Below, piece by piece: positions 1,833 to 8,471 of a DNA stretch of 8,471 bases. Made by a program: the position numbers and the translations under genes. The notes below the pieces were generated by a model, which was not told the DNA's origin, ran no database searches, and saw only the letters and a list, made by a program, of their open reading frames with translations. This DNA comes from a virus. Taxonomy: Duplodnaviria > Heunggongvirae > Uroviricota > Caudoviricetes. Each line of letters opens with the position of its first letter. Position 1 is the first letter of the stretch. The stretch lies in IMG/VR virus record IMGVR_UViG_2706794694_000001, one strand, 5' to 3'.

Positions 1833-2615
1833 TTATGCTGCCCTTTTCATTGCGAATGGAACGCGAACAAACACGATCTCTTTATAGCAGCGGCAGTTTG
1901 GCAGCTCGCCCGCGTGGCCGGTCATGCCGTCCAAAGTTGGAGGTGAATCCCAGCGGACGAATTTACCTTTCATGTGATCGTGGGAATCTCGGACATCGCC
2001 ATCATCGGCTGTACGCCAAATATAACCATCCGAGCCAATAGCTATCGCTCGGGCCATATCCAGCGCGCCCGTTGCTCTTCCCAGTTCCGTTCGGGCAATC
2101 AGATCGGCCCTAGACTTAGCAACATCGCCGGTAGATGCAATCTCTTTAGCAAACTGCTCCGCCCGACCACCGGTGACAACAGCCTCTATCGCTTTGTTCT
2201 GGATGTCGTACACCCTGTCTGCGGCCTCGAGAGGCAGAGATTTGATGTACTTGACCTGTTCGGCGATGATGGATTGCATCACCTGGCCCACAGGAGCGCT
2301 TTCCACAAGATTGCGGAGCTCGCGACTGATGTTCTTGCTGTGTTGCCGCCAAACTTTCTCGTTCTGCCGGGTTAGGTCCGCAGTAAAGTTTTCCGCGACC
2401 TTTGTCGCCCAGGGGGTGATGATTTCACTGTAACGCTCCAGCGCCGCAATAATTTCCGTGATACTGTCATTTGAACCATCGTAGCGACCATTTACGATGT
2501 CTCCGACCGCCCTCGCTATCCTGCGTAGGCTGGTTCGATACCGGATTTCCGCCTGACGGCTCCTGCGGTTCGTCATCAGGTTCGCCGATGCCGGGCGGCG
2601 CTTCATCTTCGGCAT
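1833..2615 (-). CDS. phage head morphogenesis protein, Mu F-like / SPP1 gp7 family (minor head protein)
   Basis: 260-aa ORF whose C-terminus carries the PNCRC-type motif of this family (…HAGELPNCRCYKEIVFV). GAGGA lies about 10 nt before the ATG at 2615. The start overlaps the portal 3' end by 149 nt, so the true start is uncertain. TAA stop. Confidence 0.8.
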   Translation of the reverse strand: MPKMKRRPASANLMTNRRSRQAEIRYRTSLRRIARAVGDIVNGRYDGSNDSITEIIAALERYSEIITPWATKVAENFTADLTRQNEKVWRQHSKNISRELRNLVESAPVGQVMQSIIAEQVKYIKSLPLEAADRVYDIQNKAIEAVVTGGRAEQFAKEIASTGDVAKSRADLIARTELGRATGALDMARAIAIGSDGYIWRTADDGDVRDSHDHMKGKFVRWDSPPTLDGMTGHAGELPNCRCYKEIVFVRVPFAMKRAA

Positions 2616-3549
2616 TCTCGATGTCCTCGTCGGTAATGGATGCCCCGATGCCGGTTACGTCAGAATTTTCTCGCAAATCAGTCATAGCGGCTTTCAGTGT
2701 CATCAGACCATCACCCAGCGCCGTACTGATTGCGTTGGTGGTGTTTAACGCCACCGTTGAGCGATCGACATCAGACATTTGCCAGAGCGGGTTAAACTCA
2801 AACGTGAAATCGTCCGGCAGCGGCTTGCCAAGTTCCGAACGATGCATGATGTCCAGTATCCGCCGCACCGGAAGACGTAAACGCCTCTCCTGCAACGAAC
2901 TGATGCGATCGTAATAGTTGGCAAGGTCTGCATCACCGGTAGAAAATCCTTTCGGGGACTGTCCGAACAACCGCACCAGTGGGATACCAACAGCGCCACT
3001 AATCTGTTCTACAAACTGCGAAAGGATGTCATCCAGACCACTGAAGCTGTACTGATGGGTTTCAAACTTATCCCGCGAGTCCATGAGCGTCATGCCTTCA
3101 TTACTCTGGAACTGTCGAATCAGGTCGATATTCTTCAGCAACGCTTCATACGCAGGACCACCAAGTGCGATAAGCTCGCGTAGCTTCTCCACGCTGTAGG
3201 TACGCAAATGCGCCTTGTAGACCAGCTGCGCCGCGCCGACAGTAGCGCTGTCGAACGCGGTAAGACGATCCCAGATACGCTCTACAACCGACATTCCCCA
3301 TTCGTTCTCGGTCATCTTCTGCTGAAATGGCAACGTGACGCCATCAAAGCGAATCAGGCGACTGTGATGAATGCGCCAGGCAGGAATTCCCGTTGCTGTG
3401 GTCACCACATCGTAAAACTCAGGTTTACCCAGGTCCGGCCCCATATCTTTAATGCGGCGGGTCAGTGCCGGGTCGACCATCCAGCGGTCGAGCGGGAGAA
3501 TCCCCTTAAACTTGCCCTTACCGATGGTTTCGGGTCGCAGCGGGGTCAT
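2467..3549 (-). CDS. phage portal protein, largest uninterrupted ORF (C-terminal 360 codons of the portal reading frame)
   Basis: ORF sits right after terL in a terS-terL-portal-morphogenesis order, has an acidic C-terminal tail typical of portals, and ends in TGA. The same frame continues upstream to 3933 but carries two TAG codons (see the pseudogene feature). Confidence 0.75.
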   Translation of the reverse strand: MTPLRPETIGKGKFKGILPLDRWMVDPALTRRIKDMGPDLGKPEFYDVVTTATGIPAWRIHHSRLIRFDGVTLPFQQKMTENEWGMSVVERIWDRLTAFDSATVGAAQLVYKAHLRTYSVEKLRELIALGGPAYEALLKNIDLIRQFQSNEGMTLMDSRDKFETHQYSFSGLDDILSQFVEQISGAVGIPLVRLFGQSPKGFSTGDADLANYYDRISSLQERRLRLPVRRILDIMHRSELGKPLPDDFTFEFNPLWQMSDVDRSTVALNTTNAISTALGDGLMTLKAAMTDLRENSDVTGIGASITDEDIENAEDEAPPGIGEPDDEPQEPSGGNPVSNQPTQDSEGGRRHRKWSLRWFK

Positions 3550-3933
3550 TGGTGCCTACCCCTCAATCATGATGAAACCCACCGCGCCGCCGTAGAGGCG
3601 CGACCATTTCAGCACGTCATTCAGCGCATCCCAGATTTGCAACTCATCCAGTTGTGATTCGAGAATGCCACGATCTTTTGCATCAATTTCCGAAGTGATG
3701 CGAATGCCTTTGCGGGTCATATCATCCGGGATAGCATCGACTGCTTCGCCGATGATCTAGGATGAACGATAGGACCATTCCACCAGCATGCGGTTACGAC
3801 TGGTGAAATTAGCCCGGTAGGTGGATGCTGAGTGCTGGTTAGGTGTCTGCATCCCTACGCGGGCAATAAAATTCTCATAACCATCAGCTGTGGCCTGCAC
3901 AGTTCGCCGCAGGGCTTGTTTGTTTCGTGCCAT
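2467..3933 (-). pseudogene. full-length portal reading frame (~489 codons) interrupted by two in-frame amber (TAG) codons
   Basis: An ATG at 3933-3931 overlaps the terL stop as ATGA. 3933-3549 = 384 = 128x3, so it is in frame with the 360-aa ORF. Translation MARNKQALRRTVQATADGYENFIARVGMQTPNQHSASTYRANFTSRNRMLVEWSYRSS*IIGEAVDAIPDDMTRKGIRITSEIDAKDRGILESQLDELQIWDALNDVLKWSRLYGGAVGFIMIEG*APMTPL…; the stops are plus-strand CTA at 3757-3759 and 3556-3558. No frameshifts. Confidence 0.7.
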
Positions 3934-5336
3934 CAGGCCTGTCTCCCCAGCTGTTCCCAGATATCCAGCGATGTATCGATTGGCGCGAAGGCCATAATGA
4001 ATGCATCAGCAACGTTTGGTGACGGTATCTCGCGTTTTGCGAGGTCTTTTTTACTTTCGACCATCACACGTCCGTTACGGTCGAAATCACGATGAGGTGT
4101 TGTCAGTTCCAGTTTCAGCTTTTCAAGCAACGGACAACGAGAATCTATGCTGATCAGCTCATCCACAGGATACTGTTCTCCGTTGTTAATGGCGTTAAAC
4201 GTATTTCTGAAACGGTCAGCCACCAGCCACCATGCCTGAGCCTTAAGATTTGCGAAAAAGTCTTTGTTGGGGATGCCGTTGTACTCGTCATCTGGCTCAT
4301 GCACACCAGCACCGGCGTTAAACCTCTGGTAATTCACACGTCGCGCGTATGCGTTCTCGCTCTTCCGGTCAGCGTTAATTTCAGAGAATTTAGCACCGGC
4401 AGACGCACCAACACCGATAGAGTCGTAAACAATATCTGCTTCACGCTCCAGCGCCGCCTGATAAGTACGCTGGCAGCTCTTCAGTAATTCATCTTCTTTG
4501 GCCTTCCATTCGTCGGCCCAGAAAACAACGGATCCGTGACGGTAAACGTTAGCGCACTTATCTGTACCACTGTCAGCCACGTCAAAGCCAATACGCTTTC
4601 TTCCACTGGGTTCGAAATTTAACGTTTTGTGCGCATCCACTGCGGCTTCTATCCAAGACAGTTTGATGATTGCCGCATCATCATCAGACTCCGGAACGCC
4701 CTCATACACATGTTTAAAACCATCCGGATCACGGCGTCGCGCCGCGTCGATAACCTTAAGCATGGTGTCAGACAGAAACGGATTTTCGTCATAGTTAATT
4801 TTGCGGATGAGAGTGCCTTCGGGCGGATCAACAACGAAGTTGCGCCAGACGAAATCAGTAACAAGTCCGGGGTTGAATATGAACCAGCATTCCGAACCCT
4901 CTTTACGGATCGTTGGCTCCAGAATTTTCCACTGGTATTCCGTCAGTGCGTGGGCTTCTTCCAGCCACAACACATCGATCCCCTCCAGTGACTTAATTTC
5001 TTCGATGTTGCGCCATAATCCATAAAAAACAAATTCCGAGCCAGTAACCCGGTTAATGATTTTGTTGTTCAGAATACGGAAACGGTGCCGCAGACCAAAC
5101 CTGTCTATCTGAATTTTGAGCAGGGTATACACCGACTCTTCGATTTTATTCTGGATCTGACGGGCACAACAAAAACGCAGGGTGTATTTATTCGACAGAA
5201 ATATGGCAATGCCAGCGGCATCCCATGATTTTGACGATGACCGACCACCATAAAGCACTTTGTTACGTGCCCGCATAGTCCAGAAACTACGTAAAGCCGG
5301 ATTCAGCGTCGGTTTGGATGTCAGAGTAGAAGTCAT
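3933..5336 (-). CDS. terL: terminase large subunit (PBSX / Terminase_3-type ATPase-nuclease)
   Basis: N-terminal motif TLNPALRSFW…ARNKVLYGGRSSSKSW (Walker A) and a WLEEAH-type Walker B region. TGA stop at 3933-3935 overlaps the portal ATG. Start is ambiguous: the ORF is open to 5444 but the upstream part reads as out-of-frame terS sequence; ATG at 5336 chosen (alternatives 5354 and 5363). Confidence 0.85.
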   Translation of the reverse strand: MTSTLTSKPTLNPALRSFWTMRARNKVLYGGRSSSKSWDAAGIAIFLSNKYTLRFCCARQIQNKIEESVYTLLKIQIDRFGLRHRFRILNNKIINRVTGSEFVFYGLWRNIEEIKSLEGIDVLWLEEAHALTEYQWKILEPTIRKEGSECWFIFNPGLVTDFVWRNFVVDPPEGTLIRKINYDENPFLSDTMLKVIDAARRRDPDGFKHVYEGVPESDDDAAIIKLSWIEAAVDAHKTLNFEPSGRKRIGFDVADSGTDKCANVYRHGSVVFWADEWKAKEDELLKSCQRTYQAALEREADIVYDSIGVGASAGAKFSEINADRKSENAYARRVNYQRFNAGAGVHEPDDEYNGIPNKDFFANLKAQAWWLVADRFRNTFNAINNGEQYPVDELISIDSRCPLLEKLKLELTTPHRDFDRNGRVMVESKKDLAKREIPSPNVADAFIMAFAPIDTSLDIWEQLGRQA

Positions 5337-6051
5337 TGAGGTCACGCTCTCCATTGCCATCATCAATACCTGCATCACGGCGAAGACGATCAGCCTCCAG
5401 AGACACCTTATCAGTGGCGGCCTTGCGGTAGGCTGTATCAGCAAATATTTTTCCTACCGTCGCAAGCGTGCCAACGATGGACTCAATACGAACTGTATTG
5501 CGCATCATTGCTTTCTCGGCGGCGCTGATATTTTCAATCAGCATCTTCCTTTCCTGGTCCCCATTAGCATCTTCCAGCGACACCAACCACCGACCAATAT
5601 TCTCTGCAGCGACAAGGTTGTTAGCACGAAGGCGAAATAATTCGTCCTCGAGCGTCAACGCTTTAGCGTCCTCTATCACCTCATCTTTGAGCAGAAGGCG
5701 ACGGGCATAACCACCGTGTTTTAATGCCTGCTGGTTACCGGGTTGGAATGGGTTAGTCGGGGGATCGGTACGCATTCCGCGTATCGGTTTCGTATCCGGT
5801 GTAGATTCTGTTTTTAGTTGCGTACTTTTTTGTGTAAGGCCAGTAATGGCAGGCTTTCTGCTGGTACGCACTTTCCTTTTTTGCGTACCATTTTTGCAAA
5901 CCTGCGTACCGCCACTGCGTGCCCAACCAAGCTTTTTGGCCCTCTTCCTGATAGCCCCTTCTGTAACGCCGTATTTCTCGCCTATATCACGGAGGCTAAG
6001 GACTCCGGCCCGGTATGCCGATTCGATGGCCTCCCAGTCCGGTTTTGCCAT
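5287..6051 (-). CDS. terS: terminase small subunit (N-terminal helix-turn-helix DNA-binding domain)
   Basis: 254-aa ORF directly upstream of terL. N-terminus MAKPDWEAIESAYRAGVLSLRDIGEKYGVTEGAIRKRAKKLGW is a typical terminase-small-subunit HTH. AGGAAG Shine-Dalgarno 7 nt before the ATG at 6051; TAG stop at 5287-5289. Confidence 0.8.
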   Translation of the reverse strand: MAKPDWEAIESAYRAGVLSLRDIGEKYGVTEGAIRKRAKKLGWARSGGTQVCKNGTQKRKVRTSRKPAITGLTQKSTQLKTESTPDTKPIRGMRTDPPTNPFQPGNQQALKHGGYARRLLLKDEVIEDAKALTLEDELFRLRANNLVAAENIGRWLVSLEDANGDQERKMLIENISAAEKAMMRNTVRIESIVGTLATVGKIFADTAYRKAATDKVSLEADRLRRDAGIDDGNGERDLNDFYSDIQTDAESGFT

Positions 6052-6165
6052 GATTATGCTTCCTGTGATTTACTGTTATCGCTGCCTGTCACAATAGGTT
6101 GCTTTAATTCTTCCTCATCACTCACTCCTGCGACGCTCCGTGGCAGGGCCCCCCACAGGAGTACC

Positions 6166-6195
6166 TTGTAAATGTAAGGTGTTTAAGCCTAAATT
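6166..6195 (+). promoter_or_regulatory. putative sigma70-like promoter for the YqaA/DedA-like gene (-35 TTGTAA 6166-6171, 18-nt spacer, -10 TAAATT 6190-6195)
   Basis: Pattern match only, 4/6 to consensus in each hexamer; located about 55 nt upstream of the ATG at 6249 in an AT-rich intergenic region. Confidence 0.2.
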
Positions 6196-6248
6196 AAGTC
6201 GTATCACGGTTAAATAGCAAAGAAAAATTCACAGAAGGAAAGACATTG

Positions 6249-6758
6249 ATGGAGTGGATAAATGCTTTGATGAACTATTTTGTACTTCATCCATATCGCC
6301 TATGGGGGCTTCTTTTTATAATAGCGTTCACAAAATCCACTTTACTCATTTCGGCGATATTGCCACCAGCATCAATTATGATGGCCACTGTAATTACAGT
6401 CAGCAAGACGACTCTTTCACCATGGGAAGCTGGAATCACGGTCATGAGTGGCGCATGGTGCGGTACTATCGTTAATTACCATCTTGGTATAATAATTGGG
6501 CATATCCCTCAACTTGCATGTATAATATCAAGCCGTTCCAATACAATAGAACGGGTTCGCCTTCAGTTGCAAAATAACTCTGTGTCAATACTTTTCACTT
6601 CGCGCTTTATCGCCGTGCTGCGTTATATTGCTCCTTTGGTGGCAGGAATGTTGCAACTTCATCCAGTGAAAGTGTATACAGTGAGTCTGATTTCAGCTGC
6701 TAGCTGGTCAGCACTTTATGTTGGTAGTTTTAGCTTCGTGTTGCCTTTTTTTAGCTAA
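6249..6758 (+). CDS. YqaA-like DedA-superfamily inner membrane protein (likely prophage moron)
   Basis: Only plus-strand gene. ATG at 6249 is preceded by AGGAAAG; an in-frame TTG lies at 6246. Multi-pass hydrophobic protein with DedA/YqaA-type motifs (…LPPASIMMA…SPWEAG…GAWCGTIVNYHLG…SRFIAVLRYIAPLVAG…). Visibly lower GC than the flanking phage genes. TAA stop. Confidence 0.7.
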   Translation: MEWINALMNYFVLHPYRLWGLLFIIAFTKSTLLISAILPPASIMMATVITVSKTTLSPWEAGITVMSGAWCGTIVNYHLGIIIGHIPQLACIISSRSNTIERVRLQLQNNSVSILFTSRFIAVLRYIAPLVAGMLQLHPVKVYTVSLISAASWSALYVGSFSFVLPFFS

Positions 6759-6846
6759 ACTGCCCATAAAAAGCTCTTGCGAATCCAGCTTCCCCCATTC
6801 CTCTGACAACAGAATCTGATTTGAAGGATAATGAGTAAAATTACCG

Positions 6847-7317
6847 CTACCCCCCAAGGCATTGGATCCTGATGTACTCCTGAAGCATTCTCAATGCTGT
6901 CTGGTCGCTGATGATTCCGTCCCGGATACCGAGAACGTTTCGTCCAGCAACTGGAGAGAGTTCGACGGTGGCATCATTGCCCATGCCGGAGGCGCTGGAG
7001 GTTTCGGCTGAGGATGGCACAGGGCATTTTCCTTTGACGAGCACCCGACCACCATTATCAAGCTTGCGCCGAAGAGCATCATTTTCAGCTTTCGCATCAG
7101 CTAACTCCTTCGTGTATTTTGCATCGAGCGCAGCAACATCACGCTGACGCATCTGCATGTCAGTAATGGTTGCGTTCGCCAGCTTCAGTTCTCTTGCGTT
7201 TTTGTCGCGCTGCTCTTTGTAGGTAATGGCGTTATCACGGTAATGATTAACAGCCCATGACAGGCGGACGATGATGCAGATAACCAGAGCGGAGATAATC
7301 GCGGTGACTCTGCTCAT
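6847..7317 (-). CDS. Rz: Rz-family i-spanin (inner-membrane spanin subunit), copy 1, non-lambda C-terminal allele
   Basis: [17 protein letters not shown]…[13 protein letters not shown]…[27 protein letters not shown] is near-identical to lambda Rz in the N-terminal half, with a divergent but homologous C-terminal half. Start taken as ATG 7317-7315, preceded by a 42-nt copy of the endolysin 3' end in ATGA arrangement (the ORF is open from GTG 7329). TAG stop. Confidence 0.85.
6891..7097 (-). CDS. Rz1: Rz1-family o-spanin lipoprotein, copy 1, embedded in Rz in another frame
   Basis: 68-aa ORF nested inside Rz copy 1 in the +1 frame: [19 protein letters not shown] (signal peptide with lipobox VVGC) followed by proline-rich [11 protein letters not shown], the hallmark of embedded Rz1. 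Confidence 0.7.
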
Positions 7318-7369
7318 TGCTGCCCCCACAAACAGACTTCACGCTCAATCTCACGACGGGTCATCAGCC
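7081..7369. repeat. direct repeat copy A of the Rz N-terminal region plus endolysin 3' end (289 bp); the partner is 7530-7921
   Basis: 7081-7146 is identical to 7530-7595 (offset 449) and 7267-7369 is identical to 7819-7921 (offset 552). Identity breaks at 7080/7529 and 7370/7922. Confidence 0.9.
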
Positions 7370-7869
7370 GCTCTCTGAGGGTGAAATAATCCCGTTCAGC
7401 GGTGTCTGCCAGTCGGGGGCTGGTTGCATTATCCACGCCGGAGGCGGTGGTGGCTTCACGCACTGACTGACAGACTGCTTTGATGTGCAACCGACGACGA
7501 CCAGCGGCAACATCAGCGCGCAGAGTTTCATTTTCAGCTTTCGCATCAGCTAACTCCTTCGTGTATTTTGCATCGAGCGCAGCAACATCACGCTGNNNNN
7601 NNNNNNNNNNNNNNNNNNNNNNNNNNNNNNNNNNNNNNNNNNNNNNNNNNNNNNNNNNNNNNNNNNNNNNNNNNNNNNNNNNNNNNNNNNNNNNNNNNNN
7701 NNNNNNNNNNNNNNNNNNNNNNNNNNNNNNNNNNNNNNNNNNNNNNNNNNNNNNNNNNNNNNNNNNNNNNNNNNNNNNNNNNNNNNNNNNNNNNNNNNNN
7801 NNNNNNNNNNNNNNNNNNGACGATGATGCAGATAACCAGAGCGGAGATAATCGCGGTGACTCTGCTCAT
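7314..7869 (-). CDS. Rz: Rz-family i-spanin, copy 2, lambda-type allele; interrupted by the N-run and C-terminally truncated/fused to a duplicated endolysin 3' fragment (probably non-functional as it stands)
   Basis: ATG at 7869-7867 overlaps the endolysin TGA (ATGA); [17 protein letters not shown] then runs into the N-run. After the gap: …[77 protein letters not shown], then reads into [16 protein letters not shown] (the endolysin C-terminal sequence) instead of the lambda Rz tail. Frame continuity across the gap cannot be verified. Confidence 0.55.
7364..7546 (-). CDS. Rz1: Rz1-family o-spanin lipoprotein, copy 2, lambda-type, intact 60 aa
   Basis: [60 protein letters not shown] is near-identical to lambda Rz1 as recalled: lipobox VVGC, PPPPP stretch, embedded in the Rz copy 2 frame. 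Confidence 0.75.
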   Translation of the reverse strand: MRKLKMKLCALMLPLVVVGCTSKQSVSQCVKPPPPPAWIMQPAPDWQTPLNGIISPSESG

Positions 7870-7921
7870 TGCTGCCCCCACAAACAGACTTCACGCTCAA
7901 TCTCACGACGGGTCATCAGCC
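7530..7921. repeat. direct repeat copy B (contains the 223-nt N-run); the partner is 7081-7369
   Basis: See copy A; the flanks on both sides of the N-run match copy A exactly. Confidence 0.9.
7596..7818. other. assembly gap (223 N)
   Basis: Contiguous run of n characters. Its length is not a multiple of 3 and is 103 nt longer than the equivalent interval in repeat copy A, so it is a placeholder of uncertain size. Confidence 0.97.
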
Positions 7922-8363
7922 CTTTCCATTGCTTACCGCCAGCATATGTCCAGCGACATAGCTGGTCACATGCGCCTTTGATATAGCCCTGGTTTATTTT
8001 GCGAAGAAGCGTCGATGTTCTGAAATTGCCAGCGCCCACGTTGTAAACGAACGAGTAAAGAGCGCCGCGCGTTGTTTCCGGTATATCGACTTTGATGTAC
8101 GGGTTAATTTGTCTGGCGACAGTGGCAAGGTCTTTATTCAGGAGAGCTTTGCATTCTGCTTCGGTATACGTTTTACCAGGCATGATGTCTTTTCCGGTGT
8201 GTCCGTGACATACAGTCCATACACCAATGATATCTTTGTATAGTATGTAGCTGACACCTTCCAGACCATCGTTACCACCTGGGCCAGTGATTAACACAGA
8301 TGCTATAGCAACAGCCCCGCCACCAATAGCAACTGCAACAGCCTTGCGTAATGATGGCGACAT
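7866..8363 (-). CDS. R: SAR endolysin (P21 R-like lysozyme with N-terminal signal-arrest-release domain)
   Basis: 165-aa ORF near-identical to the recalled P21/DLP12-type lysozyme: G/A-rich weakly hydrophobic N-terminus [23 protein letters not shown] (SAR domain), catalytic E35/D44/T50 spacing of T4-lysozyme-like enzymes, C-terminal …[27 protein letters not shown] Shine-Dalgarno before the ATG at 8363; TGA stop overlaps the Rz start. Confidence 0.92.
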
Positions 8364-8385
8364 TATTCACCTCTCGCAGCCTTAC
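8363..8385 (-). pseudogene. S: 3' remnant of a P21-type pinholin (S) gene: last six codons KAARGE plus TAA stop, cut by IS2
   Basis: The minus-strand frame ending in TAA that overlaps the endolysin ATG (TAATG) reads …K-A-A-R-G-E-stop, matching the recalled C-terminus of pinholin S21 (…RRKAARGE). Upstream the frame runs straight into the IS2 terminal sequence and is closed by stops. Confidence 0.6.
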
Positions 8386-8471
8386 TAGACTGGCCCCCTG
8401 AATCTCCAGACAACCAGTATCACTTAAATAAGTGATAGTCTTAATACTAGTTTTTAGACTAGTCATTGGAG
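8386..8471 (+). mobile_element. IS2 left end (terminal inverted repeat and leader; continues beyond the window end)
   Basis: 8386-8471 (TAGACTGGCCCCCTGAATCTCCAGACAACCAGTATCACTTAAATAAGTGATAGTCTTAATACTAGTTTTTAGACTAGTCATTGGAG) matches the recalled IS2 left end, with one possible mismatch (CAACCAGTATC here versus CAACCAATATC as recalled). The transposase orfA start would lie just past the window. Match is from memory. Confidence 0.88.

Follow-up and report, generated by a model that had tools for sequence, protein, structure and literature searches.

A tandem Rz/Rz1 arrangement in a draft Shigella sonnei contig is very probably an artefact of scaffolding and gap filling

The two-component spanins of lambda and the lambdoid phages, such as rrrD-rzpD-rzoD of DLP12, are encoded directly after the endolysin gene, with the o-spanin gene Rz1 embedded out of frame within the i-spanin gene Rz. 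The locus described here has the same embedded layout, present in two adjacent units.

A second kind of described system bears on this locus, the false joins made by assembly software. GapFiller extends the edges of a scaffold gap one base at a time, using a 29-nt overlap and majority voting, and closes the gap when the two extensions overlap by n nucleotides (default at least 10), a condition checked after each added base (PMC3446322). The high-throughput pipeline of the Sanger Institute runs Velvet, followed by 16 SSPACE iterations and 120 iterations of GapFiller 1.11; its test set included 299 S. sonnei assemblies, and its authors state that the greedy SSPACE and GapFiller steps may produce false joins (PMC5320598). 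The S. sonnei accession prefixes in the supplement of that study are CWW*, CWX*, CWY* and CWZ*, and the nearby prefix CWUS, that of the record analysed here, is not among the entries of this list that were covered (PMC5320598).

The window (the whole stretch of DNA analysed, 8,471 nucleotides) is the entire record CWUS01000167.1 (8,471 bp) of the draft S. sonnei assembly GCA_001250595.1. From its species, date block and record style we infer that it came through the Sanger pipeline. A literature search for the record accession found no paper. All lysis genes lie on the minus strand. The features on which the argument turns are as follows, in order of decreasing position; P1 denotes the resident prophage and P2 a second one.

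8386..8471, no strand assigned: end of an IS3-family insertion sequence (IS), the last 86 nt of the window; the contig ends inside it, and it begins 22 nt before the start codon of R.
8363..7866, minus: endolysin gene R, 165 aa, phage lysozyme (PF00959, E=1e-43), a real gene of P1.
7869, minus: ATG of Rz copy 2 (PF03245), overlapping the end of R; 17 readable codons, then 223 N.
7819..7921, minus: upstream copy of a repeat arm, containing the last 56 nt of R and the first 51 nt of Rz, collinear with the complete-genome locus L011.
7596..7818, no strand assigned: N-run, 223 N.
7595..7317, minus: Rz copy 2 beyond the N-run, 93 codons beginning QRDVAAL, stop codon at 7316..7314.
7546..7364, minus: Rz1 of copy 2, 60 aa (PF06085, E=6e-20), lambda-like and intact.
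7528..7595, minus: repeat arm beside the lambda-type segment, with an rzpD/lambda-like allele, equal to 7079-7146.
7370..7527, minus: segment specific to the lambda-type Rz (ENETLRADV...DYFTLRER), from P2, with the lambda-like Rz1 (7546..7364) embedded.
7360..7369, no strand assigned: overlap at the join, 10 nt, GTCATCAGCC (coding strand GGCTGATGAC), located by three-way comparison.
7267..7369, minus: downstream copy of the repeat arm (3′ end of R and start of Rz), duplicating 7819-7921; single in L011.
7317..6847, minus: Rz copy 1, complete, 156 aa (PF03245), the true i-spanin gene of P1, with a foreign allele at 7120-7152.
7097..6891, minus: Rz1 of copy 1, 68 aa (PF06085, E=4e-21), an o-spanin lipoprotein gene in the +1 frame inside Rz; real.
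6246..6758, plus: gene for a DedA/VTT-domain membrane protein (PF09335), previously called YqaA-like, moron-like in its position between the lysis and packaging genes.
2467-3933, minus: portal gene (PF06381), divided among three ORFs (58, 54 and 360 aa).

The first-pass annotation had described two Rz/Rz1 units of different C-terminal type, and domain matches to PF03245 (E=6e-32 for copy 1, 5e-35 for the readable part of copy 2) and PF06085 in both units bear this out. The Rz genes fit the i-spanin plan of an N-terminal transmembrane segment and a periplasmic coiled-coil, with a hydrophobic N-terminus, and the C-terminal half of copy 1 is unlike that of copy 2. Rz starts within the end of R (7866-8363), the usual spanin position directly downstream of the endolysin in a holin-endolysin-spanin cassette. 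Both Rz1 proteins, as read from the sequence, contain VVGC (in copy 1 at the end of the signal peptide) and a PPPPPAW or PPAPPAW motif, as expected of o-spanins, which are small Pro-rich lipoproteins with a lipobox Cys. Lambda-type Rz is presumably a near-identical match for the copy-2 segment, as is lambda Rz1 for the Rz1 of that copy. Also as annotated, copy 2 contains the N-run, is cut after DYFTLRERL, and continues in frame into the C-terminus of the endolysin. A duplicated endolysin 3′ end is indeed present there; it is not the 42 nt at 7330-7371 proposed at first, being 56 nt long including the stop codon (7314-7369 = 7866-7921).

Two exact direct repeats frame the arrangement, 7267-7369 = 7819-7921 (103 nt, 100%) and 7079-7146 = 7528-7595 (68 nt, 100%). 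The N-run spans 223 nt where the corresponding part of copy 1 has 120 nt, an excess of 103, and the gap is thus true neither in length nor in reading frame. It looks like an unclosed scaffold gap whose size was estimated rather than measured. Its left edge abuts position 7147, a site that varies among the paralogues, and its right edge (the equivalent of 7267) lies no more than 2 nt from the end of some sibling S. sonnei contigs that carry P2. Since the ends of P2 draft contigs range over the equivalents of 7247-7267, our argument does not rest on the gap edges. The P2 contigs might end at an IS junction, an idea suggested by protein P0042 of Shigella, a lambda-type Rz whose 26-aa N-terminus is foreign.

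Complete chromosomes were retrieved through the protein of the neighbouring DedA-family gene. Two of them, L011 (CP022457.1) and L006 (CP151357.1), are of the lineage to which the window belongs; they match it at 99.83% over 3246-7369 and at 100% over 7819-8471, and have a single cassette: terminase, DedA, one Rz (156 aa) and R. A 103-nt stretch of L011 (4022-4124) aligns to both 7267-7369 and 7819-7921 of the window, which is thus the L011 locus with a 552-nt insert, spanning 7370-7921 with the Ns included. Its collinearity with L011 marks the upstream arm, 7819..7921, as what we take to be the genuine R/Rz overlap of P1.

The inserted material has a separate origin. Positions 7370-7527 are 100% identical to the Rz of a second prophage in four loci (L001, L004, L016 and L021). 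In this Shigella/E. coli prophage, P2, which is separate from P1, HNH and P27-family terminase genes come after the lambda-type Rz. On five S. sonnei draft contigs (L016-L020) an Rz 3′ part identical to the lambda-type one of the window likewise leads into HNH and terminase genes; the inserted sequence thus exists as a distinct locus in the same species. E. coli FDAARGOS_944 has a single cassette at the locus that corresponds to the window (L002) and the lambda-type ‘parent’ in another prophage (L001), 3.6 Mb away. Among E. coli genomes with any match, the number of matching places has a median of 2 and reaches 14. A complete genome containing P2 was also sought through protein P0011; the sole long record found was L027 (CP024693.1, a chromosome-level ‘complete’ record of 5.39 Mb), where a 2,500-nt N-run (1-2500) immediately precedes a lambda-type Rz that is truncated. 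Even in records that look finished, the Rz repeat is not resolved.

The genes around the cassette show what kind of prophage is involved. The exact endolysin protein occurs on 892 contigs, and the exact DedA-family protein on at least 1000 Shigella and E. coli contigs, with its gene in the same position in L002, L006, L011 and L014. The IS end matches DNA beside HTH_Tnp_1/rve transposase genes in seven loci (L005, L007-L010, L012 and L013), and we assume it to resemble the terminus of IS2. Where the window has the IS end, L002 and L014 of E. coli encode a class II holin, so the neighbouring holin seems to have been lost from the S. sonnei cassette. Complete genome L011 also has the portal pieces of 54 and 360 aa, while L014 of E. 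coli encodes an intact portal of 488 aa; we read the split as real pseudogenisation of a decaying prophage and not as sequencing error. With an IS separating R from the expected holin position and the portal gene in pieces, the prophage looks defective. In four Shigella loci (L005, L008, L009 and L012) an IS interrupts the Rz beside the DedA gene, at the position equivalent to 7092, and only a fragment of Rz1 remains.

Allele by allele, the window is a patchwork. Comparison with L011 over 4,124 nt gives 7 mismatches, all of them in 7120-7152, a 33-nt patch inside the repeat, and they make the RefSeq protein WP_052968613.1 unique to the contig of the window. At the patch sites resident P1 reads QQRQRDADAL and S. 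sonnei P2 reads QQRQRDVNAL; the window has neither, carrying a third, rzpD/lambda-like allele that is common in E. coli and matches genes annotated rzpD. Over 7529-7595 the window is 100% identical to L026, an rzpD-type locus of E. coli, and the arm 7528-7595 differs from the S. sonnei P2 contigs at 7569, 7578, 7582 and 7583. After a genuine duplication, each arm should match its own parent in allele, unless both match a single parent. Instead, both arms have the same third allele, beside unique sequences that agree 100% with P1 and P2 of S. sonnei. The patch at 7120-7152, and likewise 7569-7595, is probably a consensus of paralogous reads. A single consensus from pooled reads would account for the identical third-paralogue arms in one step; a biological origin would call for some four template switches within 900 nt of a locus that is clonal and identical in all other respects.

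The join itself falls at 7369/7370, inside the Arg codon before L-M-T. The first-pass annotation gave the bases shared at the junction as CTGATG/CACC; they form instead one 10-nt block, GTCATCAGCC, at 7360-7369. We compared the resident locus from the arm through R (733 nt) with the P2-specific stretch and the 600 nt downstream of it (769 nt). The block is the only 10-mer common to the two, where 0.54 would be expected by chance, and an overlap at chance level needs no biological explanation. Its length is exactly the default minimum of the gap-closing software and no longer than chance provides. The annotation had called this microhomology consistent with recombination, an interpretation not supported by a chance-level 10-mer equal to the gap-closer default, nor by arms that are a patchwork with a third paralogue.

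Taken together, sequence comparisons make it very probable that the tandem Rz/Rz1 arrangement is a scaffolding and gap-filling artefact of the draft assembly and not a property of the genome. The true locus is most likely a single ordinary embedded Rz/Rz1 pair after the endolysin in an apparently defective lambdoid prophage of S. sonnei, with the order endolysin R, Rz with embedded Rz1, DedA-family gene (on the opposite strand) and terminase genes. The annotation had itself offered, as a fallback, a mis-joined repeat from several lambdoid prophages, and this is the reading that the evidence favours; the mis-join lies at the closed join 7369/7370 as well as at the N-run.

The artefact could have arisen as follows. 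S. sonnei has several paralogous Rz genes with near-identical 5′ halves, so that short-read assemblies break there. A fragment of the P2 lambda-type Rz (7370-7595) would have been scaffolded into the gap between the 3′ part of Rz and R. Gap filling would then have extended the edges base by base from the pooled reads of all paralogues, giving both arms an rzpD-like consensus. The left gap would have been ‘closed’ when the two extensions chanced to overlap by the 10 nt GTCATCAGCC at 7360-7369, and the right gap would remain as the 223 N. We infer both the Velvet, SSPACE and GapFiller origin at default n = 10 and the exact order of these events.

Other drafts behave similarly in this region. Dozens of entries named ‘lysis protein, partial’ (102-152 aa) lie at the ends of S. 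sonnei and S. flexneri draft contigs, and a hybrid Rz with a resident 5′ part and a lambda-type 3′ part (P0060) is present on seven S. sonnei contigs. The Rz region thus routinely breaks in drafts, and hybrid Rz genes appear there, which is consistent with an artefact without proving one. P0060 and P0042 may themselves be either further assembly hybrids or IS read-through ORFs, or real mosaics.

Two observations count against an artefact. The foreign patch lies only 41 nt into the repeat, and Velvet k-mers are 66-90% of the read length, so the patch is unexpected from the primary assembler and must be ascribed to the k = 30 gap-filling step. Moreover, a 10-nt microhomology is compatible with real illegitimate recombination too. 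Divergence of lambda-type paralogues at 7370, which might have ended a short Velvet node at that point, gained no support, as L001, L004, L016 and L021 are all identical there.

The junction was sought elsewhere at the nucleotide level. Neither the tandem units nor the junction occurs in 5,426 complete E. coli genomes and 50,697 phage records. With a 121-nt junction probe, the two halves were always found about 459 bp apart in the complete E. coli genomes and in permuted order, as in one normal cassette. A 40-nt probe (7346-7385), designed so that neither parent alone seeds a match, had no match in the same E. coli genomes or phage records. Exact junction patterns (a 38-mer and a 24-mer) were absent from GTDB representatives, IMG/VR and JGI metagenomes, collections that cover one genome per species and make this negative uninformative on S. 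sonnei itself.

At the protein level, among about 15 billion proteins, the Rz protein of copy 1 and the chimeric 93-aa product are each found on one contig, that of the window, and the normal S. sonnei Rz allele on at least 1000 contigs. When the C-terminal 93 aa of the chimera were used as a query, no cluster representative had an endolysin tail, a weak negative as variants hide within clusters: the chimeric product of the window was itself concealed in a cluster whose representative is a normal partial Rz. For S. sonnei, coverage consisted of a few complete genomes, with the others reached through protein look-ups in which 90% clusters hide variants. Within this scope no independent assembly shows the tandem or recombinant junction. 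Further S. sonnei drafts can be screened with the junction string ACGGGTCATCAGCCGCTCTCTGAG.

The main reading of the first-pass annotation, a real recombinant with two adjacent cassettes, has to be weighed against these results. It would be a rearrangement specific to this strain, in which microhomology-mediated recombination or template switching with a second lambdoid prophage inserted about 449 bp, so that a lambda-type Rz, truncated and joined to the tail of the endolysin and with its lambda-type Rz1 intact, came to stand before the resident Rz/Rz1; the N-run would then reflect trouble of the assembler with a 291-nt tandem repeat. The join does lie in continuous sequence and not across the N-run, and De Bruijn and overlap assemblers do not themselves make 10-nt joins. 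The fusion is in frame, with the natural stop of the lambda-type Rz1 inside the 10-nt overlap, the mosaicism of lambdoid lysis cassettes is known, and there are hybrids such as P0060. In addition, a suffix/prefix merge by software needs the left edge of the fragment exactly at 7360 at the time of the merge, a position that the proposed steps do not explain.

We nevertheless consider such a rearrangement improbable. Within 900 nt the sequence would have had to pass at least four times from one of three paralogues to another (P1, the rzpD-like patch, P1, lambda-type, the rzpD-like arm, P1), while both flanks remained 100% identical to a clonal species. The 10-mer at its junction is at chance level and equals the gap-closer threshold, the gap length contradicts a tandem model (223 N against 120 nt), and the arrangement is on one contig only and in no other collection searched. 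The single cassettes of the complete genomes, the identical flanks and a junction found nowhere else all speak against this reading. If it were true, a decaying prophage of one isolate would have two o-spanins of different specificity beside one complete i-spanin, as the outcome of template switching at microhomologies between three paralogous lysis cassettes of prophages.

As an alternative to a software join, chimeric templates could have given reads that really contain the junction and that the assembler then followed; the source might be chimeras formed in the library or by PCR, or a culture in which a second strain or phage was mixed. In-vitro template switching likewise uses short microhomologies, and the arms do mix alleles. 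Random chimeras are individually rare, however, and would fail coverage cut-offs, the mixture of alleles is expected from paralogous prophages in one genome, and the rest of the window matches a complete S. sonnei genome; we regard this explanation as very improbable. A plain tandem duplication within one phage was rejected, as the 3′ parts of the two units differ and the sequence on either side belongs to the resident prophage.

With a gap-filling artefact as the preferred reading, the biological weight of the locus is small: its true lysis cassette is of the ordinary lambdoid kind, the prophage looks defective, and the genes themselves offer nothing new. Its interest is as a case of data quality, in which a public GenBank/RefSeq record carries two proteins, WP_052968613.1 and WP_171554377.1, that are probably products of assembly. 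A false join can sit in continuous sequence, beyond any N-run, if a gap-closer takes 10-nt overlaps among paralogous prophages. Because gap-closers accept such overlaps, ‘microhomology junctions’ in bulk short-read drafts are not evidence of recombination without read support.

Set beside the known systems, the true locus of the window has one pair, like the lambda and lambdoid spanin loci, in a prophage that looks defective (IS, broken portal). The boundary at 7078/7079 (7527/7528), where a shared Rz 5′ part meets two 3′ types, is likewise natural and present in many genomes, as in the mosaic lysis cassettes of lambdoid phages; those mosaics exchange one allele for another, whereas the window has tandem units. 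There is also a likeness to the false joins of SSPACE and GapFiller, and for those of the Sanger pipeline both the membership of this record and the parameter used are presumed: the window has an overlap equal to the default n = 10, an N-run of the wrong length beside the join, and arms that resemble pooled paralogues.
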